Part shown: piece by piece, positions 2,788-14,673 of the stretch | Position numbering within the stretch: position 1 is the first letter of the stretch | Layout: every line of letters begins with the position of its first letter | Source of the DNA: Candidatus Latescibacterota bacterium | Lineage (GTDB): Bacteria > Latescibacterota > UBA2968 > GCA-2709665 | NCBI GenBank assembly: GCA_965219995.1 | Contig: CBDCOX010000002.1 | Span: 1,376,001 to 1,440,000 of the forward strand | Direction of reading: 5' to 3' | Length of the DNA: 64,000 nt | Notes under the pieces: model-generated | Database searches by the model: none | Seen by the model: the letters and a program-made list of their open reading frames with translations, nothing else | What the model was told of the DNA's origin: nothing | Translations under genes and position numbers: made by a program

Positions 2788-5700
2788 TCAGGTGCCAACC
2801 GAATTGTAAGCGAGGTTGAACACGATGTCGGTCATCAAACGCTTGAAGTCCTTGTCGTCCATATACCGCTTGAACAGTTCGGTGTCATCCTTCATCACTC
2901 CGGTCATCACGCGCAGCAGCGCCTTGTCGTGCTCGATCCGCGCATTCTGCCGGTCGGAGTTCACCCTGGCGTTTCGGAACGCGGTGTCGGCGGCCACGCG
3001 GGCGGGAATGGTTTCAATGATGAGCTGTTCCACGCGGTCGCGATCTTCCCATTGAATATCACCGAAGTGTTCGTTGAAGTCCCGAAGTATGTTGGAAAGC
3101 CGGTCCAATTCCAGCTCCGGTTGATGTCCTCCACCCGCCGCCGGTACCGGATCGATCTCCGCATCCTCGTCCGGCAACAGGATATGTTGCATCGCCCGCT
3201 TCTCGACCCGGTAGCTGTCCAGATCGATCGCATCGAGGATCCCTTTGGAAAGGTCCTCCTCCTCGGGAGCGGGTAACTTCGGGACCAGGAAGTTGAGGAA
3301 AATCGAACGCTTTTCCCATTCCGCATCGTTGTATGGAAGAATGGATGAAAGAAAGGCGTAGGTCCGCACGAAAGCCTTGGCCCTGCCCTTGAACGCGACT
3401 TGGCCGTCTTCGTCCAGATCGCTTCGATAGACCGCAACACAAGCATCCAGGATTGGATCGAGACGGTCGCGCTCGGCCCCTTCCAGGTAGAGCTGCACAA
3501 ATTCGTCAATCTGCACATCCGAATAGACCTGTGCGCCGTCCAGGTCCGCCTGCAGGTCATGGAGCTTGTTCGGGTCGGTCTCGTCGGCCAGAATCGTCGT
3601 CCGGTAGAAGTCTGCGAAAGCGTCGCGGATGGTGTCCGTATCGTTAAGAAAATCAAGTACGAACACATCGTGCTTCTTCGGCTGAGCGCGGTTCAGGCGG
3701 GAAAGCGTCTGCACGGCCTTGATGCCGGACAGCGTCTTGTCCACGTACATCGTGTGCAGCAGGGGCTCGTCATAGCCGGTCTGAAACTTGTCCGCGCAGA
3801 CCAGGAACCGGTAAGGGTCCTCCCGGAATCGCCCGGCGATCTGCGTCGAGGGCAGGCCGTTCAGAGACGCCTCGCTGACCTTCCCACCGCCGTATTCGTG
3901 CTCCCCTGAGAAGGCAACCAGAGCCTGGTACTGGCTTTTCCGCTCCTTTAGATAGTTTCGGATCGCGTGATAGTACTGAATCGCGCGCTCAATGCCGTTT
4001 GTAACGACCATAGCCCGCGCCGATCCGCCGATCTTTCCCTGCTTCAACACCTGGTCGTGGAAGTGGTCGACCATGATCTCGGCCTTGAGCCGAATCGCGT
4101 GGTCGCTTCCTTCAACGAACCGACGCAGCTTCCTCTGTGCTTTCCGGATGTCGAACTCGGGGTCGTCTTCAACTGTCTTGGCGAGCTTGTAGTAGCTGTT
4201 CACGGGCGTGTAATGGGCGAGAACGTCGAGGATGAATCCTTCCTGAATGGCCTGCTTCATGGTGTAGCTATGGAAGGCCCGATGGCTCACCGTACCGTCG
4301 GGCTGCGGGTCCGGCGCGCCGAAGATCTCGAGCGTCTTGTTCTTGGGCGTGGCGGTAAACGCGAAATAACTGGCGTTGGGCAACAGTTTCCGCGACTCCA
4401 TCAGGCGGTTGATCCGGTCCTCGAAGGTATCCTGATCGTCATCTTCTCCCGCTTCCGACAGCGCCTGCGCCATGGCCGCGCTGGTGCGTCCCCCCTGGCT
4501 TGAATGGGCTTCGTCGATGATGATGGCGAAGCGCTTGCCCCGCTGTTCGTTCCCGATCTCGTCCAGGATGAACGGAAACTTCTGGACCGTGGAAATGATG
4601 ATCTTCTTTCCGCTTTCGATGAAACGGCGTAGATCTCCCGAGGCGTCTGCGTGCCCTACCGTCGCCGCCACCTGGGCGTACTGTTTGATGGTGTCGCGGA
4701 TCTGCCGGTCCAGGATGAGCCTGTCCGTGACGACGATGATCGAATCGAAGACAGGAGCGTCGTCCTTCTCCAACCCGATCAACTGGTGGGCGAGCCAGGC
4801 GATCGAGTTGCTCTTCCCACTGCCGGCGGAATGTTGGATCAGGTAGCGCTGCCCGGCGCCTCGTGCGGCCGCATCGTCCAGCAGGCGTCGTACCGCGTCG
4901 AGTTGATGGAAGCGCGGCCAGACCTGGGTCCTTCGGTTCTTACCGCTCTTCTCGTCCTTCGATGCCACCACTTGCGCGTAGTTCTCGAGGATGTTCGCCA
5001 GACTCTCGCGAGTGAGAACTTCCCGCCATAGATAGGCGACCGCGAGACCGTTCGGGTTGGGCGGATTGCCCGCGCCGTCGTTCCAGCCGCGGTTAAAGGG
5101 AAGAAACCACGACGCCTTCCCCTTCAGGTCCGTGCAAAAACGCACCTCACGCTCGTCCAGCGCGAAGTGCGCGATACACCGCCCGAATCCAAACAGCTTT
5201 TCTCGCGGGTTCCGGTCTTTTCGATATTGCCAGACTGCATCGTCCACCGTCTGTTTGGTGAGGCTGTTTTTCAATTCGAACGTGAACACGGGCATCCCGT
5301 TGATGAACAGGCCGATGTCCAGCGCCCGCTGCGCCTCGTCCCGGCTGTAGCGAAGCTGGCGGGTGACCGTGAAGCGGTTTTGTTCGAAGCGTTCCTGCGC
5401 GCTGGGGTTGTCGGTCGAAGGCGTGCCGTAGAACAGATCCAGGTACAGCGGTCCGTGCTTGATCCCGTTGCGCAGCACGTCGATGGTGCCGCGCTTGTTG
5501 ATCTCGCCCTGCAGCCGATTCAAAAACGCGCGCCGCGTCGGTCCGTCCTCGGAAAGCGAGAGCGACTCGGTGGCTTCGGGCTGGGTTATACGCAAGAATG
5601 CCGACAGTTGCACCAGATCGACGCAATACTCCCGATCGTAATCGTGGGGATTGCCGCAACTCCAGCCAACGCCCCCATAGCCGACATGGGGTTCTGCCAC

Positions 5701-5790
5701 GGTGCCCGTGGTCGGCGGCTCGCAGGCATTGCCCGTCAAGCCGGTGCAAATCAGGCGTTCAAGTCCGCGTTCGGAGGTGTCGGTGGGCAT
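2788..5790 (-). CDS. hsdR: Type I restriction endonuclease subunit R
   Basis: Nuclease motif DIGLFINGMPVFTFELKN, Walker A HSAGSGKS, DEAH box, FTATP, KFQTGYDEP, QTLSRLNR; 1000 aa. Confidence 0.96.
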   Translation of the reverse strand: MPTDTSERGLERLICTGLTGNACEPPTTGTVAEPHVGYGGVGWSCGNPHDYDREYCVDLVQLSAFLRITQPEATESLSLSEDGPTRRAFLNRLQGEINKRGTIDVLRNGIKHGPLYLDLFYGTPSTDNPSAQERFEQNRFTVTRQLRYSRDEAQRALDIGLFINGMPVFTFELKNSLTKQTVDDAVWQYRKDRNPREKLFGFGRCIAHFALDEREVRFCTDLKGKASWFLPFNRGWNDGAGNPPNPNGLAVAYLWREVLTRESLANILENYAQVVASKDEKSGKNRRTQVWPRFHQLDAVRRLLDDAAARGAGQRYLIQHSAGSGKSNSIAWLAHQLIGLEKDDAPVFDSIIVVTDRLILDRQIRDTIKQYAQVAATVGHADASGDLRRFIESGKKIIISTVQKFPFILDEIGNEQRGKRFAIIIDEAHSSQGGRTSAAMAQALSEAGEDDDQDTFEDRINRLMESRKLLPNASYFAFTATPKNKTLEIFGAPDPQPDGTVSHRAFHSYTMKQAIQEGFILDVLAHYTPVNSYYKLAKTVEDDPEFDIRKAQRKLRRFVEGSDHAIRLKAEIMVDHFHDQVLKQGKIGGSARAMVVTNGIERAIQYYHAIRNYLKERKSQYQALVAFSGEHEYGGGKVSEASLNGLPSTQIAGRFREDPYRFLVCADKFQTGYDEPLLHTMYVDKTLSGIKAVQTLSRLNRAQPKKHDVFVLDFLNDTDTIRDAFADFYRTTILADETDPNKLHDLQADLDGAQVYSDVQIDEFVQLYLEGAERDRLDPILDACVAVYRSDLDEDGQVAFKGRAKAFVRTYAFLSSILPYNDAEWEKRSIFLNFLVPKLPAPEEEDLSKGILDAIDLDSYRVEKRAMQHILLPDEDAEIDPVPAAGGGHQPELELDRLSNILRDFNEHFGDIQWEDRDRVEQLIIETIPARVAADTAFRNARVNSDRQNARIEHDKALLRVMTGVMKDDTELFKRYMDDKDFKRLMTDIVFNLAYNSVGT

Positions 5791-6148: not shown

Positions 6149-6901
6149 TTAAACTTCCTCAGGCATAATGTCAATTGGCGTGCGTCCCGGGAACCAGCGA
6201 GCGGAACTGGTGTTTCCTTTTTTGTGGATCTGTCCTTCAACCCTTAAATCCTGGATCAACCTCTGGACCTGAACATACGAAAGAGCTGGCAGTACTTGAA
6301 CGAGTTCACGTAATCGACTCCCTTCTTTCCGGTTATCTTGAATGTGCTTCAGCAACAACATCTTATTCGTCCGACGGTCCAATCCACGCTTGCGCGTGTA
6401 GACTCCCGCCTTACCGATGTGCCGGTAGAATCGCCGGGACAAAAGCAGCCGTGCGCTCCGCCCACGACCCGAGCGTACGATGATCCCCCGTTCCAGCAGA
6501 GGTTCGATCCTCGGTTTAAGGTCGTCGGAAATTGGCTGTTCGCGATGGACGAAATCGACCAATAATAGATCGTCAAGTCCAAACAAGGCGACCTGTTCCT
6601 GCCCGATCTCCTCCAAAAAGCGTAAAAACTCCGGGTCTTGAATGTCACCGCGTAATGTGAGCCATACGGTGTGCGCGTCAGTATGGGAGAAGTCTGGCAA
6701 CGGCTTACTCTGCTGAATACACTCGCGAAATATGCTGTCAAACCCCTGTCCGGCCCGTTCAACCAAACCACATTTGCCGAGAACTTCCGCGATACGGCGA
6801 TTACGTGGATTTTGTTGTCGAAGGATATTCTCAGAGGTTATGCCCGGTGGGAAACCACCAGGACTCACGATCTCAATGCGCCGAGGGTACTGGCGTCTGA
6901 T
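6149..6901 (-). pseudogene. 5'-truncated AlbA_2/HATPase_c_4 (RecG-like) DNA-binding ATPase; only the C-terminal part remains
   Basis: Frame reads IRRQYPRRIEIVSPGGFPPGIT..PRNRRIAEVL..GLVERAGQG plus a wHTH tail; homology continues upstream of the GTG at 6868 and then stops; no N-terminal domain. Confidence 0.7.
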
Positions 6902-7031: not shown

Positions 7032-7454
7032 CTACACGTTCGTGTACGGGTTGATGACCCGGAGGCCGTTGTAGTCCTGTTCCGTACTCAACTCTTCGGA
7101 ATAAACGGCGTCGCAGCCCAGGGCGAGGGCCGCGGCGAGAATTGCGCCGTCCCAATAGGACAGCCCGAAACGTTGGCTGATGGCGATTGCTGCAATGAAC
7201 AAACTGAGAGTGATGTCCTGCACCGGAAAGTGACTAATGCTCTCGATGAATTGCAGCGCGTGGTCCTGGGTGATCGCTCCAGGACGGCTGGAGCGCGTAG
7301 ACTGGTGATAGAACTCCTGGAGTACCTGGACGGACAACGCAAGATCTCCCTCTTCCAGCAGCCGTTGAGCCGAACGCTGCTTGCCGGCTTCATCAGGAGC
7401 GGGGCTGGCCGCGTATATCAGAACGTTCGTATCGACAAAGCGCACGGTGCTCAC
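7032..7454 (-). CDS. vapC: PIN-domain (VapC-like) toxin
   Basis: FVDTNVLIYA, QVLQEF, LSYWDGAILAAA, YSEEL, VINPY; GTGA overlap with the upstream antitoxin. Confidence 0.9.
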   Translation of the reverse strand: MSTVRFVDTNVLIYAASPAPDEAGKQRSAQRLLEEGDLALSVQVLQEFYHQSTRSSRPGAITQDHALQFIESISHFPVQDITLSLFIAAIAISQRFGLSYWDGAILAAALALGCDAVYSEELSTEQDYNGLRVINPYTNV

Positions 7455-7792
7455 CCGCTCTCGGGATCCTGGCGTTCGACAGCGGCCGCTGCCTCGGCTT
7501 CGGCCCTTGCCGTGGCCCGGTCGTACAGCTCCTCTCGAGACAGGTTGTCGGCGGCCCTGAATCCGGGTGAAGTGGTGCGAATTTTCTCTATGACCTCGCT
7601 CAACATCCTACGCCGACGCTTGGCCTCCGGCTCCGTGACCGTCCCGTTGTCGGCTGCGCCGCCTGCGCGGTCCGATGCCAGACTCTTCAGGTAGTCTCGC
7701 ACGAGGGCCGATACCGACGTGTCCAATTCTGCCGCACGGATGCGCGCGAGCCGATGTGTCTCTTCGTCGACGGATACGGTGATATTTCTCAT
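7451..7792 (-). CDS. RHH-type antitoxin (VapB/DUF6364-like)
   Basis: MRNITVSVDEETHRLARIRAAELDTSVSALVRDYL ribbon-helix-helix; LSREELYDR tail; coupled to the PIN gene. Confidence 0.85.
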   Translation of the reverse strand: MRNITVSVDEETHRLARIRAAELDTSVSALVRDYLKSLASDRAGGAADNGTVTEPEAKRRRRMLSEVIEKIRTTSPGFRAADNLSREELYDRATARAEAEAAAAVERQDPESG

Positions 7793-7827
7793 AGTCACAG
7801 CCTCACAGTTCTGTGTATCACAATATA
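7793..7827 (-). promoter_or_regulatory. Putative autoregulatory operator and -10 of the vapBC pair
   Basis: CACAG..CACAGTTCTGTG repeats next to TATATT (minus strand); a near-identical copy lies at 8393-8428. Confidence 0.5.
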
Positions 7828-8475: not shown

Positions 8476-8503
8476 GTAGGGGCGACCGGCCGGTCGCCCC
8501 TAC
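8476..8503. repeat. Perfect 28-bp GTAG-type REP-like palindrome
   Basis: GTAGGGGCGACCGGCCGGTCGCCCCTAC is its own reverse complement and overlaps the hsdS stop codon. Confidence 0.75.
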
Positions 8504-9930
8504 GTCGTTGGATGATCTGTCATGTGGTCTTCTGACGACTCTTGGGCGTCGCCAGAGACGTCGTCCTCACGCAATTCAGCCGCCTCCTCGCGCACGTCCA
8601 GCTTTCCAGTGACGACATCGGAGACCAAGCGGGTTCGGTACTCACGGAGGAGCTCGATCTGACGGTTAGCGCGGCTAGCATTGGTGTTCAGCCTTGAGAT
8701 ACGTGCTTCGATCTGTCGCACGATTAAGCCTTGCTCACAGACCGGCGCAATCGCAATTCCTCTAGAACCGATTCTATCAACATTGAGATTGCCCTGTGTA
8801 TTTACTGGCGCCTCGCGTACCAACTCCGGCTTCATTGCTTGAAATACATAGAACAGATAGTCTCGCTCCACGCCTTTTCGAGGGACGAATCCGACAACAC
8901 TGTCTGGAAAGCACGCCTCGAAGTCGAGAACTGCGACATCGCCAATGTTCGCGGCGATTGTCATTGCAAGCGTCCCGGCAGGGAACATCTGGCTCACGGC
9001 GAGTCCATTGTCGTTGAGGGTCTGCATGTACCTTGTTATAGCCTTTTCCGCACGAGCTACATCGCCCGTTTGAATAAAGGGATACGGCCCGTCATAGAGA
9101 GAGGCGTCGTTTCGTGGCCTGTGTGTGAACTTTCCCCTCAATATCTGCGCCGTCTGTTTCACTCGTGTCAATTTCCAATGCGCCGGCACCTCTCCCAGCC
9201 ACTCCACACCGGAGTTCTTGTATGCCGGGTACGGCCGACCGGTTCGGACGTCGATCTGGCCCGTGACGGCCTGGTGGATGATGGCCTGTTTCTGCACCTC
9301 CAGCAGCGCAATCAGCTTCTGTTTGGCGCGGATGTAGCGCTGGATGCGCCTGTCGGCGTGGTCGAGGAAGCGGACGATAGCGGTTTGTTCGGTGAGGGGC
9401 GGGAGTGGGAGCCACACCGATTTGATGCCAGTGTGAGAGAGCCCATATCTGGTTACGCCTTTCGCCTCGATATGGAATTGATAGGCCAGACCTTTGCTCT
9501 GCAAAGCACGGAGCAAATAACCGCCCGCGAGCTCATCAGTTCGTGGACGCAGCATCGCCAAATGATAGCCTGAAATAAGATCGGTCGCAGGCTTAGTTAC
9601 CAATGCTGGCACTCCAATATCATCCCATGTCTCGGAGTCCTTGGTGATGAGGACATCATCTTTCTCAAGTCGGAAACGATCAATCTCCTCATCGGTAGCG
9701 GTCGCCTGCATGAAGTTAATCTGTTCATTGATGTAGTCATTCTTGTAGACATCAACATAGTTACAAAGACGGACCCGCTCCTCATCCTCTCTTACGTGTT
9801 TATCCACGTTGCTTACTCGCATATCTATTACATTCTGAAGACGTCGCACCTCCCAATGTGCCGGAATGCCTCCGAGCCATTCGACGCCAGAGGGTTTGTT
9901 TTCTGGATAGGAGTGGGGAAATTGAGCCAT
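8500..9930 (-). CDS. hsdS: Type I R-M specificity subunit S
   Basis: Two repeats YPxxKxSGVEWLGxxPAHW, two TRDs, LPPLTEQTAIVRFLD and LLREYRTRLVSDVVTGKLDVR conserved helices. Confidence 0.95.
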   Translation of the reverse strand: MAQFPHSYPENKPSGVEWLGGIPAHWEVRRLQNVIDMRVSNVDKHVREDEERVRLCNYVDVYKNDYINEQINFMQATATDEEIDRFRLEKDDVLITKDSETWDDIGVPALVTKPATDLISGYHLAMLRPRTDELAGGYLLRALQSKGLAYQFHIEAKGVTRYGLSHTGIKSVWLPLPPLTEQTAIVRFLDHADRRIQRYIRAKQKLIALLEVQKQAIIHQAVTGQIDVRTGRPYPAYKNSGVEWLGEVPAHWKLTRVKQTAQILRGKFTHRPRNDASLYDGPYPFIQTGDVARAEKAITRYMQTLNDNGLAVSQMFPAGTLAMTIAANIGDVAVLDFEACFPDSVVGFVPRKGVERDYLFYVFQAMKPELVREAPVNTQGNLNVDRIGSRGIAIAPVCEQGLIVRQIEARISRLNTNASRANRQIELLREYRTRLVSDVVTGKLDVREEAAELREDDVSGDAQESSEDHMTDHPTT

Positions 9931-9938
9931 TAGAGACC

Positions 9939-10886
9939 TTATACTACTGGGATTCGCATCGTTGTCGATATGCCCCTGCTATAGTCGCCGACAAGATCGC
10001 CGTGTTGCCCTAACACGTAGAATGGATTTACGGCAATCGACACGGAAGAGTTCATATGCAAGGGGAAGTCACGAGGAAACAAACGTATCAATTGGCACAT
10101 CTCGTGAGCACGGGGATCACTGTTGGTTGACGCTACTGATTCGAGCGTTTCTTTAATCCGGTTTACGAGATATAATCCGGAAAACAGAGAAAAGAACTCC
10201 ATGTAGGAGAACACTCCGAACTTTATTCCGTCAATCATGGAGAACCGTGAATCGTTGTCCTCATCAGGTAGAACCGGCCCTACAATTGGTAGCCTCTCGT
10301 TGGTATGGGCCCCCTTCTTGACGGCCATGAGGTATAGAATGGATCGTGCGTCGAATTGCATTTCGTTAATATTCAGCAGCTTCGTTTTCATCCACTTACT
10401 GAACTTGACAGTTGTGGTCGAGGTATCAAACGGGCTAGAAAGAATAGTCCTACTTTCCGATTCATGGTAAATCCCATACAACGCATGCAATGAAACTGTA
10501 TGATCAAATGGAGGGATCTTAAGAGCGCGTGAAGATCCATCGGCGAAGTTTAATACACACTCTTGCCCTTTGAAAGACTGCGTTGCACGTAACGTCTTAG
10601 CGTTTTCTGGAGGCGCTTTCATAGGATGCATTTCGGGATTGACTATACATCGCTTCAACAACGACCCGTTTCCGTCCAGGAGTATCTTTCTAAGGGCGAC
10701 CGATATCTGTCTCGTTTTCGCAAGCATGAGGGTACCGGAAGGAGAATGCCGACGAGCGATCTGTCCGAACTCTTCAAGAGCAGTTGCAATCTCCGATACG
10801 CATTCTAATAGTATGAGAACCGTGGTCTGATGCACACTCGGGCGAATCTGCCACAGCATTGTCTGCCAGCTATTGTCGGCTTTCAT
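9939..10886 (-). CDS. Hypothetical protein (AT-richer cargo between hsdM and hsdS)
   Basis: 315-aa ORF, start coupled by ATGA to the hsdM remnant and stop 8 nt before the hsdS start; no recognised domain. Confidence 0.75.
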   Translation of the reverse strand: MKADNSWQTMLWQIRPSVHQTTVLILLECVSEIATALEEFGQIARRHSPSGTLMLAKTRQISVALRKILLDGNGSLLKRCIVNPEMHPMKAPPENAKTLRATQSFKGQECVLNFADGSSRALKIPPFDHTVSLHALYGIYHESESRTILSSPFDTSTTTVKFSKWMKTKLLNINEMQFDARSILYLMAVKKGAHTNERLPIVGPVLPDEDNDSRFSMIDGIKFGVFSYMEFFSLFSGLYLVNRIKETLESVASTNSDPRAHEMCQLIRLFPRDFPLHMNSSVSIAVNPFYVLGQHGDLVGDYSRGISTTMRIPVV

Positions 10887-11089
10887 TCTTCAATCCCTTC
10901 GGAGGCAACCTCTCGTCCGGTTAACTCCGCTAAGAGCACCTCCGCCGTATTTTCAAGCGCCAGGATTTCAGCCCGAATCTCCTCCAGTGTCCGCATTGGT
11001 TGTGGTCTGTCGAAATATCGCATAAAGCTGATCTCGTATCCGATTATTACACTGATCGATTGGTACCACGCGTCAGTGGCAGATGGCAG
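10883..11089 (-). pseudogene. hsdM: Remnant 3' end of an hsdM gene
   Basis: LPSATDAWYQSISVIIGYEISFMRYFDRPQPMRTLEEIRAEILALENTAEVLLAEL matches hsdM 12721-12888 at 39/56 aa; in-frame stop upstream and no 5' portion. Confidence 0.88.
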
Positions 11090-11149
11090 GCCCGCGCGGC
11101 ATTGGCTACCAAATGGGCTGAATTAGCCATGATTTTCTTGAGTTCTATT

Positions 11150-11558: not shown

Positions 11559-11774
11559 TCAGCCGTCGCGACGATTTGTTGGCTGGACCTGCGTTGATTC
11601 GCGTATCCGCGCGGCCATTGCTTCCAGCATGGGGTCGGAATACCGCCTGGAATTGAACCACTCCACCGTTTCCTTTGCAGTCATGTCGGCGGTTTCGGCA
11701 GTATTGCGGGCGCGGGCCTTGCGCATGAATTCGACACAGTCGAAATTCTTCTTGTGGCTGGGGCTTTCAGACAT
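11559..11774 (-). CDS. Small putative antitoxin (FDC-motif family), paralog of 12039-12242
   Basis: KNFDCVEFMRKARARNTAETADMT..RYSDPMLE; start overlaps the stop of a decayed PIN 3' end. Confidence 0.7.
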   Translation of the reverse strand: MSESPSHKKNFDCVEFMRKARARNTAETADMTAKETVEWFNSRRYSDPMLEAMAARIRESTQVQPTNRRDG

Positions 11775-11850
11775 GGACGATTTTCTCATGGGCTCGATTG
11801 TCGATCGTGGCGTATCCATTGACGCCGTTGCAGAGCACGATGTGCATGAA
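11767..11850 (-). pseudogene. Decayed 3' end of a PIN toxin gene
   Basis: FMHIVLCNGVNGYATIDNRAHEKIVHV* aligns with gaps to FRHMVN..YNAVNRQMGYEELNVLSPEAISYDK* of the hsdM-fused PIN. Confidence 0.55.
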
Positions 11851-12038: not shown

Positions 12039-12242
12039 TCAGGGTTCATTCTCTTTGTCTTTTTCCGATTCGCGCAATGGCGCCGCCAGTCGTTCCAGAA
12101 CAGGATCTTCATAGCGATACGTGCGATAGTACTGGATTCGCTCTGCAGGGCTCATGCCGGCTGTTTCTGCGGCAATCCTCGCACGAACCTCACGCACAAA
12201 GCGGATGCAGTCGAACCTCTCGGTTGCGGTATCATTTGTCAT
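12039..12242 (-). CDS. Small putative antitoxin (FDC-motif family) coupled to hsdM-PIN
   Basis: ERFDCIRFVREVRARIAAETAGMS; start overlaps the last 11 nt of the hsdM-PIN frame. Confidence 0.75.
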   Translation of the reverse strand: MTNDTATERFDCIRFVREVRARIAAETAGMSPAERIQYYRTYRYEDPVLERLAAPLRESEKDKENEP

Positions 12243-14673
12243 AGCTGATCGCCTCCGGGGATAGGACGTTCAGTTCCTCGTACCCCATTTGCCGGTTGAC
12301 TGCGTTGTACAACCGGTTTCGTCGCCAGTTCACCATGTGCCTGAAATTCCAGCTTGCCATAACGTCGGCCTCAGCCAGGGTTACCAGGGCGATATGCTCC
12401 GCGTCGGCGCGGTTCGCAAGGCCAAGAGCCCCGGAACCAATGTATGCGTCCGCAAGCCGTTCTGCCTCATCTGTGAGAAAGAGCATCTCTTTGTTCGCAG
12501 CGGGAATCTGATCGATCACATTGCGCACGCTTTCTGGTGCCCCCGCCAGTTCCCTGAGAATGACTTCTGAATAAACGAGGATAGCATCTCCGCGCTTGAA
12601 CTTATCAAACAACTCCATGGATGCCTCACGGACCTCCTCGTCCAGACACCCGCCGATCACCGAGGTGTCCACGTAGATGCGCGGCTTGCCGTACACAGCC
12701 GGCGGTTCCCGCACCATCGGCAGGTCGCCGAGTAACCCCTCGGTCTCTTTCTCCAGCGCTCTGATATCCGCCCCGATCTCCTCCAACGTCCGCATCGGCT
12801 GGGGCTTGTAGAAGTAACGCGTGAAGCTGATTTCGTAGCCGATTTTCACGCTGTCCTGTTGGTACCAGGCGTCACCCGCGTAGGGCAGGACCTCCCGCTT
12901 CAGGAAAGCTTTGATGCCGCCCTCGTCTTGCAGCGGAATCTGTTCTGTGTCGCGCAGGTCTGTGTCCGGTTCGTACTCGACGACGGTCGGCTTGCCGTCG
13001 AGAGTCGCCTCGAACCGGCCGCGCAGCGGGTCGGCTTCCGTGCCTCTCTTGTGGACCTTTTTGATGACGGGCTGCGCGGTTTCGCTACGCTCGAAAGTCT
13101 CCTTTAACTTCTTGATTTCGGAGGCCTTATAGGCGCGGTTGGGGTCAATCCCTTCGAGCCGTAGCGGTCGTTCGACCGTGACCTTCCAGTAGCCAAAGGC
13201 GGCGTTGTCGAAGATCTTGCTCTGTTCGGTTTCCTCGAACGCCAGAAAGGTGTCGCAGATGCGCTGGATGTCTTCCTCGCCGAGTTCGCAGTTCTTTTTC
13301 CCCAGGTTCTTGCGCAACGGTCGGTACCACTCGGTGGCATCGATCAGCTGCACTTTGCCCCGGCGATGCTCCGGCTTATTGTTGGTGAGTACCCAGACGT
13401 AGGTGGCGATGCCGGTGTTGTAGAACATGTTGAGCGGCAGGGCGACGATCGCTTCCAGCCAGTCGTTCTCGATGATCCAGCGGCGGATGTTGCTCTCGCC
13501 CTGCCCGGCATCGCCGGTGAACAGGGAACTGCCGTTGTGCACCTCGGCGATGCGGCTGCCGCCCTCCTTCACCTTGGATAGTTTATTGGCGAGAAAGAGC
13601 ATCTGCCCGTCGCTGGAACGTGTGACCAGCGAATATTCGGGATCGTCCGCGTGCTCAATCACAAAGCGCGGGTCCCGCATTTCCTTCTTGCCGCCCATGC
13701 GTTCCAGATCGGTCTTCCAGCTCTTGCCGTAGGGCGGATTGGAGAGCATGAAGTCGAACTCCCGGGACGGGAAGGCGTCGTTTGCGAGGGTGGAATGCTC
13801 CGGTCCGCCCACGATGTTATCGGCCGCGTCTCCTTCACCCTTCAGCAGCAGGTCGGCCTTGCAGATGGCGTAGGTCTCGGCATTGATCTCCTGGCCATAC
13901 AGATGGGTGGAAACCTGTTTGTCGCGCTCGGCGGCGAGTTGCTGAAGTACGTCTTCTGCCACGGTCAACATGCCGCCTGTACCGCATGCGCCGTCGTAGA
14001 TCAGGTAGGTGCTGGATGTAATCTCGTCAGCGACGGGCAGAAAGACCAGCTTCGCCATCAACGTGACGGCGTCGCGCGGGGTCCAGTGTTCGCCCGCCTC
14101 CTCATTGTTCTCCTCGTTGAATCGACGGATCAGCTCCTCGAAGATGGTGCCCATGCCGTGGTTGTCCAGGCCGGCGTGCCTGACCGTTCCGTCGCCGTTC
14201 TGCACAGGATCCGGGCTCAGGTTGATGTCGGGGGACGTCAGCTTTTCGATCAGCGTACCGAGGGCGTCGGCCCTGGAGAGCCGCGGGATCTGGATCCGGA
14301 ACTCGAAGTTTTCAAGGATGTCCTGGACGCTGGGCGAGAACCCGTCGAGCCATGCTCTAAAATCGGCCTCGAGCTGCTGGCGATTGGCGCGGGCGCGCAG
14401 GTCGCGCAGGGTGAACTTTGATGTATTGTAAAAAGCCTGTCCCGCGACTTGTCGCAGGGTTGCGTCCTGCTCGACAACCCCGGCCTTGTCGAGGTTGGTC
14501 TTCATGTCGAGGACGGCCTGCTTGCTGTCTTCCAGCACCGCGTCCAGCCGGCGCAGTACGGTCATCGGCAGAATCACGTCCCGGTACTTGCCGCGCACGT
14601 ACAGGTCGCGCAGAACGTCGTCTGCGATTCCCCAGATGTAGTTTGCGATCCAGTTCAGGTTGGCATTGCTCAC
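12232..14673 (-). CDS. hsdM: Type I R-M methyltransferase subunit M with a C-terminal PIN-domain fusion
   Basis: IWGIADDVLRD N-terminus, YDGACGTGGML (motif I), SNPPYG (motif IV), IGYEISFTRYFY; last ~150 aa RIYVDTSVIGG..ELAGAP..ADAEHIA..SWNFRH is PIN-like; GAGGAG RBS. Confidence 0.93.
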   Translation of the reverse strand: MSNANLNWIANYIWGIADDVLRDLYVRGKYRDVILPMTVLRRLDAVLEDSKQAVLDMKTNLDKAGVVEQDATLRQVAGQAFYNTSKFTLRDLRARANRQQLEADFRAWLDGFSPSVQDILENFEFRIQIPRLSRADALGTLIEKLTSPDINLSPDPVQNGDGTVRHAGLDNHGMGTIFEELIRRFNEENNEEAGEHWTPRDAVTLMAKLVFLPVADEITSSTYLIYDGACGTGGMLTVAEDVLQQLAAERDKQVSTHLYGQEINAETYAICKADLLLKGEGDAADNIVGGPEHSTLANDAFPSREFDFMLSNPPYGKSWKTDLERMGGKKEMRDPRFVIEHADDPEYSLVTRSSDGQMLFLANKLSKVKEGGSRIAEVHNGSSLFTGDAGQGESNIRRWIIENDWLEAIVALPLNMFYNTGIATYVWVLTNNKPEHRRGKVQLIDATEWYRPLRKNLGKKNCELGEEDIQRICDTFLAFEETEQSKIFDNAAFGYWKVTVERPLRLEGIDPNRAYKASEIKKLKETFERSETAQPVIKKVHKRGTEADPLRGRFEATLDGKPTVVEYEPDTDLRDTEQIPLQDEGGIKAFLKREVLPYAGDAWYQQDSVKIGYEISFTRYFYKPQPMRTLEEIGADIRALEKETEGLLGDLPMVREPPAVYGKPRIYVDTSVIGGCLDEEVREASMELFDKFKRGDAILVYSEVILRELAGAPESVRNVIDQIPAANKEMLFLTDEAERLADAYIGSGALGLANRADAEHIALVTLAEADVMASWNFRHMVNWRRNRLYNAVNRQMGYEELNVLSPEAISYDK

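Follow-up and report, generated by a model that had tools for sequence, protein, structure and literature searches.

A type I DNA methylase subunit fused in frame to a VapC-like PIN domain and followed by an exchangeable small partner gene in Candidatus Latescibacterota

Results

The hsdM reading frame continues into a PIN domain

The 64,000-nucleotide stretch analyzed here (the window; Candidatus Latescibacterota bacterium, contig CBDCOX010000002.1, positions 1,376,001 to 1,440,000) carries a type I restriction-modification (R-M) operon in which the gene for the methylase subunit, hsdM, is joined in frame to the coding sequence of a VapC-like PIN domain and overlaps a small downstream gene, small1. 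HsdM-PIN is a real, conserved and apparently undescribed architecture, a variant of the theme of toxins coupled to R-M systems. The PIN domain and the small open reading frame (ORF) form a widespread, pre-existing two-gene cassette, mostly free-standing, that has been captured by one conserved hsdM lineage and is swapped between strains, leaving orphan partner genes behind; both the capture and the swapping are new relative to the original prediction for this locus. The components of the fused locus are:

12232..14673, minus strand: hsdM-PIN fusion gene, 813 residues plus stop (ORF list, Pfam, PADLOC, 149 same-architecture clusters)
12721..14673, minus strand: HsdM part, residues 1-651 (Pfam and PADLOC), closing with the C-terminal helix ...ALEKETEGLLGDL
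12688..12720, minus strand: linker PMVREPPAVYG, residues 652-662 (model pLDDT, the predicted local distance difference test score, of first 10 residues ~54)
12235..12687, minus strand: VapC-like PIN domain, residues 663-813 (family hidden Markov model (HMM) match 12238-12687; conserved D669, E708, D757 and N776)
12039..12242, minus strand: small1, 67 residues, a type A three-helix protein with an FD motif; putative cognate antitoxin or immunity partner

It had been proposed from the sequence that HsdM lacks its usual stop and runs on into a complete PIN domain, and this is borne out by a single 813-residue ORF, an open junction and the PIN fold of the modeled tail. Read along the coding strand, the frame stays open from ...ETEGLLGDL into PMVREPPAVYGKPRIYVDTSV. 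In the 813-residue protein Pfam matches HsdM_N at residues 9-145 (3.3e-19) and N6_Mtase at residues 171-483 (3e-54), and the PADLOC type I methyltransferase model MTase_I PDLC03029 matches at 2.3e-238; the HsdM translation contains both SNPPYG and DGACGTGG, which we take to be the catalytic NPPY-type and S-adenosylmethionine-binding motifs, respectively. Unfused relatives of the same HsdM family have their C-terminus 1-20 residues past the helix that precedes the linker here. The linker is 12-15 residues long in 114 of 119 fused homologues and 33-40 residues in the other five, and a (V)RE(P) motif recurs in it.

The junction is also present in independent DNA. Contig X5, from a different organism and a different study, spans it (12066-13200) with 0 differences, and the diverged contig X7 (11634-12811) bridges it with 23 differences. 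Contig X1 spans the entire region and may be the source itself. A search for fused proteins, scored on residues 630-812 with candidates of 447-1423 residues, found the architecture in 149 clusters from several phyla. Among the 120 of these that were listed, 109 have 788-896 residues and 11 have fewer, identity in the PIN region is 46-100%, the junction ends in Y-x-D-T-S-V in 118, and many lie on megabase contigs. The sources label the fused proteins only as 'N-6 DNA methylase' or 'SAM-dependent DNA methyltransferase'.

When one genome per species was scanned, 581 stretches were found to encode a PIN relative, and the species-level locus counts given here refer to the best 80 of these 581 matches. 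Seven of the 80 loci (L001, L003, L004, L005, L011, L020 and L042) hold an intact HsdM-PIN, and they derive from Latescibacterota, Acidobacteriota/Thermoanaerobaculia, Pseudomonadales and others; two further fused loci, L002 and L056, are disrupted. Within the window's genus, 9 of 15 genomes carry the fused form. Close and distant relatives alike keep the frame open, and the domain is under purifying selection, with active-site-type residues kept and pairwise ratios of nonsynonymous to synonymous divergence (dN/dS) of 0.10-0.30 for PIN, compared with 0.04-0.09 for the HsdM body. Because the join is bridged by separate contigs, recurs in many clusters, keeps its residues and shows low dN/dS, an assembly error, a private mutation and a decaying pseudogene are excluded.

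To place the fused domains among their free-standing relatives, a quick maximum-likelihood tree was built from 35 fused and 111 free PIN representatives. It groups 34 of the 35 fused sequences in one clade, with a Shimodaira-Hasegawa-like approximate likelihood ratio (SH-aLRT) support of 94. One fused protein, P0310 (774 residues, with HsdM_N and N6_Mtase), falls outside the main fused clade. A single main capture, with subsequent separations or gene calls that were cut short, would fit this tree, and there may have been a second capture. A further relative, P0063 (240 residues), has the first ~30 and last ~40 residues of HsdM joined to a PIN, with the remainder of hsdM deleted internally.

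The tail has the fold of VapC toxins

The C-terminal 164 residues (P0001) had no Pfam match at E<=10 and none in NCBIfam or PADLOC, and comparison with the PDB, by sequence and by profile, produced chance-level rows alone. An AlphaFold model of the PIN domain, built from a 43-sequence alignment, has a mean pLDDT of 91.3. Foldseek matched it to VapC/FitB toxins at E ~1e-4 to 1e-3 and template modeling (TM) scores of 0.54-0.69 (one match at E 2e-4, TM 0.59/0.69), and VIA-align superimposed it on VapC toxins with Z = 13.0 and a root-mean-square deviation of 2.5 Å over 114-125 residues. Nearly all of the 50 rows listed by VIA-align are VapC/FitB or other PIN proteins; the cyclodehydratase RohQ is also present. 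Relatives point the same way: the fused homologue at L042 scores above the Pfam PIN (PF01850) cut-off (29.7 versus 23.6 bits), and a homologue on a Leptospira plasmid is named 'type II toxin-antitoxin system VapC family toxin' by the Prokaryotic Genome Annotation Pipeline (PGAP). A search for relatives matched 759 proteins of 90-287 residues; most of the 120 listed are 145-164 residues long, several are named 'PIN domain-containing protein' by their source, and a few have a precomputed PF01850 or PF13470 assignment. In a library clustered at 50% identity the family comprises 2825 clusters (E<=0.001). The plasmid collection gave three Leptospira records only, all of them free-standing, and tblastn of the phage collection with PIN gave no match.

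The four motifs first noticed in the tail (YVDTSV, LRELA, ADAEH and SWNFRH) coincide with the conserved blocks of the family alignment, in which D669, E708, D757 and the block S-W-N776-F-x-H are invariant. D669, E708 and N776 are present in 115 of 115 fused sequences and D757 in 114, and D669, E708 and D757 are each kept in 193-198 of 199 free PIN sequences. According to a table in Matelska 2017 (PMC5499597), PIN active sites have three or four conserved acidic residues. The statement that the acidic residues are intact in the window protein is thus correct for D669, E708 and D757 and not for the fourth canonical position, which is Asn (N776) throughout the family. Alignment of the PIN family with the canonical VapC-like protein of the window by hhalign gave a probability of 0.1, too weak for residue equivalences to be assigned.

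The PIN domain and its small partner form a two-gene cassette

The overlap between a small ORF and the PIN stop that was originally described is present and amounts to 11 nt, with GGAGG lying ~9 nt 5' of the small1 ATG. An HMM for the partner family was grown from small1 and small2 (the latter a second copy in the window, described below). Under a strict search range, a family member was found at the PIN stop in 76 of the 80 loci; L024, L026 and L061 also have one, with a start displaced by the farthest-start rule, to give 79 of 80, and in the remaining locus, L014, the contig ends 75 nt past the PIN stop. Partners are ~45-70 residues long with the core K-x-F-D-x-V-x-x-x-R-x-x-R, and small1 is modeled as three helices (pLDDT 85). 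Neither small1 nor small2 has a match in Pfam (E<=10), NCBIfam or PADLOC; the small1 model retrieved nothing from the PDB by Foldseek at E<=0.001, and the ESM Atlas yielded only unnamed 'hypothetical protein' clusters with small1. Complex predictions for PIN and small1 scored 0.87, 0.82 and 0.87 and an unrelated control scored 0.85, so that the predictions do not discriminate and support neither side.

Most PINs in the best 80 loci are free-standing proteins of ~150 residues. The window's own genome encodes one elsewhere (G000:C2:3268969-3269427, L082), 42% identical to the fused domain and with its own overlapping small partner. One protein, P0030 (268 residues), consists of a partner-like N-terminus, a linker and a PIN; it may represent either a Rosetta-stone fusion or translation reading through an orphan array, and is not taken as evidence.

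PIN alleles and partners are exchanged together on a near-constant hsdM

Comparison of the genus's nine fused loci gives a dN of 0.02-0.04 for the hsdM body and of 0.30-0.36 between PIN alleles. Four alleles are distinguished: A in the window, G010 and G009; B in G014, G006, G012 and G004; C in G008; and D in the main copy of G001. Nucleotide identity to the window is 81-94% through the linker and the first ~45 PIN codons and then 43-58%, the break lying at ~nt 2130 of the hsdM-PIN gene. Between the window and G010, dS is 0.42 in hsdM and 0.04 in PIN. (Linker dS is low in some pairs, but with 17 codons only nothing is drawn from it.) The partner genes of the genus fall into four types with 26-49% mutual identity, and PIN alleles A-D each precede their own partner type, A-D.

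Downstream (3') of the fused loci lie extra partners of other types, together with pieces from the 3' ends of PIN and of hsdM. The main hsdM-PIN(D)-partner(D) unit of G001 precedes an orphan made up of the last ~58 codons of hsdM, a complete A-type PIN that is 97% identical to that of the window, and, again, an A-type partner. The corresponding remains in the window are:

11559..11819, minus strand: small2, 86 residues, an orphan partner gene of type B, 39% identical to small1
10931..11098, minus strand: displaced 3' remnant of an older unfused hsdM, matching HsdM residues 593-648 (E 2.3e-17)

small2 is 68-80% identical to the other type-B partners of the genus. The translation of the hsdM remnant ends ...LLAELTGREVASEGIEE, and its stop overlaps the ATG of a 315-residue ORF. 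In a further genome context, L098 (G001:C8, 8432..9172, plus strand), a third hsdM 3' remnant is in frame with another ORF, which presumably encodes a transposase of the Y1/IS200 type associated with repetitive extragenic palindromic (REP) elements, as it has an HVHGIV-type motif.

Of the nine fused loci in the genus, 8 have at least two partner genes, as do 7 of the 9 loci in the broad set that are fused or ex-fused; among 64 free-standing loci (each with at least 1.5 kb of downstream sequence), 2 have more than one. The loci compared are kin, and the counts are given with no test statistic. Of the genus's 25 partner ORFs, all but one possess a start and run without interruption. Values of dN/dS are 0.21-0.69 between orphans and 0.23-0.72 between cognate partners, both noisy because the genes are short. 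Together, these data show that strains swap the PIN tip along with its partner, presumably through recombination, and that displaced partners are retained. The dynamics of the locus resemble those of polymorphic toxin-immunity loci, and the combination of swapped tips, cognate small genes and retained orphans is the strongest indirect argument for the small protein being an allele-specific neutralizer.

The remaining R-M operon and its embedded genes

The genes that follow the fused locus in the window are:

9939..10886, minus strand: 315-residue ORF without a known family, lying after the hsdM remnant and ending 8 nt before hsdS
8500..9930, minus strand: hsdS, specificity subunit (Pfam Methylase_S, 1.1e-18)
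7451..7798, minus strand: ribbon-helix-helix (RHH)-type ORF (DUF6364 6.8e-05, FitA-like RHH 0.0016)
7032..7454, minus strand: 140-residue PIN ORF (PF01850, 2e-11), directly after the RHH-type ORF
6149..6868, minus strand: 239-residue ORF with HATPase_c_4 (RecG C-terminal-like; residues 2-69, 9.8e-13), between the preceding pair and hsdR
2788..5790, minus strand: hsdR, restriction/translocase subunit of 1000 residues (Pfam HSDR_N, SWI2_SNF2, ResIII, T1R_D3-like)

The genes hsdS and hsdR, on the same strand as hsdM in the window, are kept here and in most fused loci. By its domain matches, the pair at 7032..7798 (minus strand), between hsdS and hsdR, is a predicted classical VapBC-like module, and since this RHH-PIN pair is present besides the fused PIN, the operon would hold two unrelated PIN toxins. 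The 315-residue ORF had no match in Pfam, NCBIfam, PADLOC or the ESM Atlas, nor in any of the 40 related genomes searched, and could represent a novel defence gene embedded in the operon. The 239-residue ORF at 6149..6868 may be a fragment. Domains of the kind found in the anticodon nuclease PrrC, ATP-binding cassette (ABC) or HEPN, were not detected in the window locus by Pfam, NCBIfam or PADLOC, and no secretion or delivery domain is seen in the fused protein, which comprises HsdM_N, N6_Mtase and PIN only.

Other fused loci have different genes around hsdS: DarT and Macro in L020 (8333..10739), Fic and a PF01850 PIN in L005 (10122..12054), Mrr_cat in L004 (8994..10037), HicB-like and PIN in L001 (9699..10803), and DUF433 with a small ORF in L003 (10382..11100). 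A 670-residue ORF in L020 was considered as an HsdS-DarT fusion and rejected, as the HsdS matches fall in another frame; hsdS and darT are treated as adjacent genes there.

Discussion

A proposed tethered toxin with a cognate neutralizer

The type I methylase is an M2S1 assembly. We propose that in HsdM-PIN a working methylase subunit leads, through its C-terminal helix and a linker of 12-15 residues, into a VapC-like PIN nuclease domain, and that the small three-helix protein would be the cognate neutralizer (antitoxin or immunity protein) of the tethered PIN. Two PINs would then be held together on each R-M complex, because the methylase is M2S1. The covalent tether would couple the toxin physically to the first line of defence and provide a second line, abortive infection, if the partner protein runs out or the methylase complex is disturbed; it might also, or instead, make the R-M operon addictive. 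Displaced partner genes would be kept as orphan immunity genes. We infer the nuclease activity and toxicity of the PIN, its neutralization by small1 and the trigger. An abortive-infection or addiction role is likewise inferred, by analogy with PrrC/EcoprrI and with toxin-antitoxin (TA) biology; on the same analogy, the original suggestion of a guard toxin released when R-M is inhibited, or of an addiction module, is plausible. For a tethered toxin that is neutralized by its cognate small protein and functionally linked to R-M, we judge the chances to be about even.

Several observations weigh against this proposal. The window PIN escapes every sequence-profile library tried. Its nuclease activity is unproven, because the fourth canonical acidic position is Asn. 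The predicted partner has no detectable DNA-binding domain or known fold and lies 3' of the toxin, unlike VapB. The dN/dS of the orphans is only moderately below 1 and comes from genes of ~65 codons. In the tree, the fused clade also takes in 13 'stand-alone' sequences, which are probably either fusions that have come undone or mis-called genes. The 120 HsdM relatives nearest to the window protein share 83-100% identity with it over residues 540-648; 28 of them carry a PIN and 92 are without a full PIN, so that the fusion is optional and dispensable for R-M function. The link between PIN activity and the state of the R-M complex, finally, is a proposal alone, modeled on PrrC.

Within that same set of 120 relatives, the PIN-free proteins end 1-20 residues after the C-terminal helix, with the exception of one odd tail and of P0389 and P0419 (both 686 residues), whose frame stops ~20 residues into the PIN (...LRVYADTSAIGGCEDEV) and which appear to be decayed fusions. 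The survey of these 120 proteins found no effector domain other than the PIN at the C-terminus of HsdM.

Alternative explanations

The alternative that survives best, although we consider it unlikely, is that a selfish TA cassette hitch-hiked to the 3' end of hsdM, where loss of a stop created a covalent link of no mechanistic meaning, and now stabilizes its own DNA segment. The cassette is overwhelmingly free-standing (759 proteins, 2825 clusters and 581 species-level matches), a free copy is present in the window genome too, and the many nearest HsdM proteins without a full PIN (92 of 120) fit such a history, as do the toxin genes commonly embedded in type I operons (Fic, DarT-Macro, Mrr, PIN and HicB in the fused loci themselves) and the PIN genes near type I R-M systems in the part of Matelska 2017 (PMC5499597) that deals with them. 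Against it, the in-frame join with a 12-15-residue linker of conserved character recurs in 149 clusters across phyla, the fusion outlasts repeated allele replacement, with each new PIN allele fused again, and a single PIN clade takes in 34 of the 35 fused representatives (SH-aLRT 94 in a quick tree).

PIN-like folds include structure-specific nucleases. It is conceivable, if quite improbable, that the domain is a working nuclease arm of the R-M complex that acts, for example, on RNA, R-loops or flaps at M2S1/R2M2S1 sites without arresting growth, with the small protein regulating the complex or helping it to assemble. Such an activity would be localized by its tether to a DNA-binding complex, and the partner is without the DNA-binding domain of classical antitoxins. 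The nearest structures, however, are VapC/FitB toxins, the same PIN-partner pair mostly stands free with no R-M nearby, HsdR keeps its own nuclease domain, and allele swapping with retained orphan partners is a signature of toxin and immunity.

Still less credit goes to a separate PIN protein translated from a start within the linker, the long ORF then not being the functional product. Met653 (ATG 12717) would provide such a start, the linker contains Met in 67 of 119 fused homologues, and gene callers gave products of 186-243 residues that begin within the 3' end of hsdM (P0003, P0007). However, a Shine-Dalgarno motif is absent near ATG 12717, in agreement with the poor ribosome-binding site noted at the outset (a non-ATG start is conceivable), 52 of the 119 linkers have no Met, and the frame stays open through variable linkers in every intact locus; the P0003 locus also has a long-ORF call, P0130 (longest contig 339584 for both), and other short calls arise where hsdM is frameshifted (L002). 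The idea that the join stems from faulty assembly, a private mutation or pseudogene decay has practically no probability left, as nothing in its favour was found apart from the two disrupted related loci (L002 and L056), and it is refuted by the bridging contigs, the 149 clusters, the kept residues, the fused form in 9 of 15 genomes of the genus and the PIN dN/dS.

Comparison with known systems

The fused locus shares with VapBC its PIN fold (Z 12-13 to solved VapC toxins), the conserved set of D, E and D, and a two-gene unit with overlapping stop and start. It differs in that the toxin comes first and the partner second, whereas the gene for a VapB-type antitoxin is upstream and encodes an N-terminal DNA-binding domain; in that the partner is a three-helix protein without an RHH, AbrB or helix-turn-helix match; in the Asn at the fourth acidic position; and in the covalent attachment of the toxin to HsdM.

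Polymorphic toxin systems (CdiA-CT/CdiI, Rhs) combine a conserved body with a variable C-terminal toxin, a downstream immunity gene and orphan arrays, and their toxins are exported against neighbouring cells. The conserved hsdM body, the variable PIN tip, the adjacent cognate gene and the orphans with intact partners are similar, and some orphans keep a piece of the body as a recombination handle, as with the hsdM 3' fragment in G001. HsdM, in contrast, is a cytoplasmic DNA methylase, and its tip carries only PIN alleles, with no other toxin folds, among the 120 nearest HsdM proteins; the likeness is one of locus dynamics only, and we do not class HsdM-PIN as a member. Extending our proposal of a tethered, neutralized toxin, the C-terminus of the methylase might serve as an intracellular platform in the style of polymorphic toxins, on which tips and immunity genes recombine over a near-invariant hsdM, displaced immunity genes form a protective archive and the tethered toxin couples R-M integrity to cell fate. 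We regard this broader reading as possible and put it forward tentatively.

As described in PMC3710099 and PMC3506569, the type Ic EcoprrI R-M complex keeps the anticodon nuclease PrrC latent. HsdM-PIN is like PrrC in being a putative RNase-type suicide effector physically associated with type I R-M and unlike it in that PrrC is a separate ABC-ATPase and HEPN protein that is antitoxin-free, whereas here the PIN is part of the methylase itself and comes with a small partner of its own. Matelska 2017 (PMC5499597) notes PIN genes whose transcription is coupled to type I R-M operons and says that no direct interaction had been shown. Fusions of HEPN RNases to R-M subunits are on record, as are 'embedded' defence genes; those in the preprint by Payne et al. 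2024 include a PIN partnered with an ABC ATPase, a different architecture. The passages of Matelska 2017 and Payne et al. 2024 on these cases concern neighbouring genes, unlike the covalent HsdM-PIN protein. The R-M-linked HEPN domains are stated in a passage of Anantharaman 2013 to form fusions with nucleases, helicases and ATPases but none with the methylases; here, in contrast, a toxin-type RNase fold sits on the methylase. A full-text search of the literature found no paper describing an HsdM-PIN fusion; Supplementary Figure S7 of Matelska 2017, outside that search, might show one.

Significance

The fused locus suggests a so far undescribed connection of restriction with toxin-antitoxin defence. 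To our knowledge, PrrC is almost the only case in which the physical link between an R-M system and a suicide effector is understood, and R-M and TA or abortive-infection systems are thought to cooperate. The link found here is covalent, is made on the methylase rather than on a nuclease or helicase subunit, and is widespread; earlier surveys placed no RNase toxins on the modification subunit. It also exposes an annotation gap, as Pfam, NCBIfam and PADLOC all miss the PIN and its partner. The several toxin and partner alleles carried on the same hsdM, together with the orphan partners, amount to a natural experiment and raise testable questions as to how a defence complex might gate a suicide effector, what the small partner does and why displaced partners persist. 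If the methylase C-terminus does act as a platform for exchangeable toxin tips, an arms race, with phage anti-restriction, antitoxin mimics or competing R-M elements, would be played out on the modification subunit.

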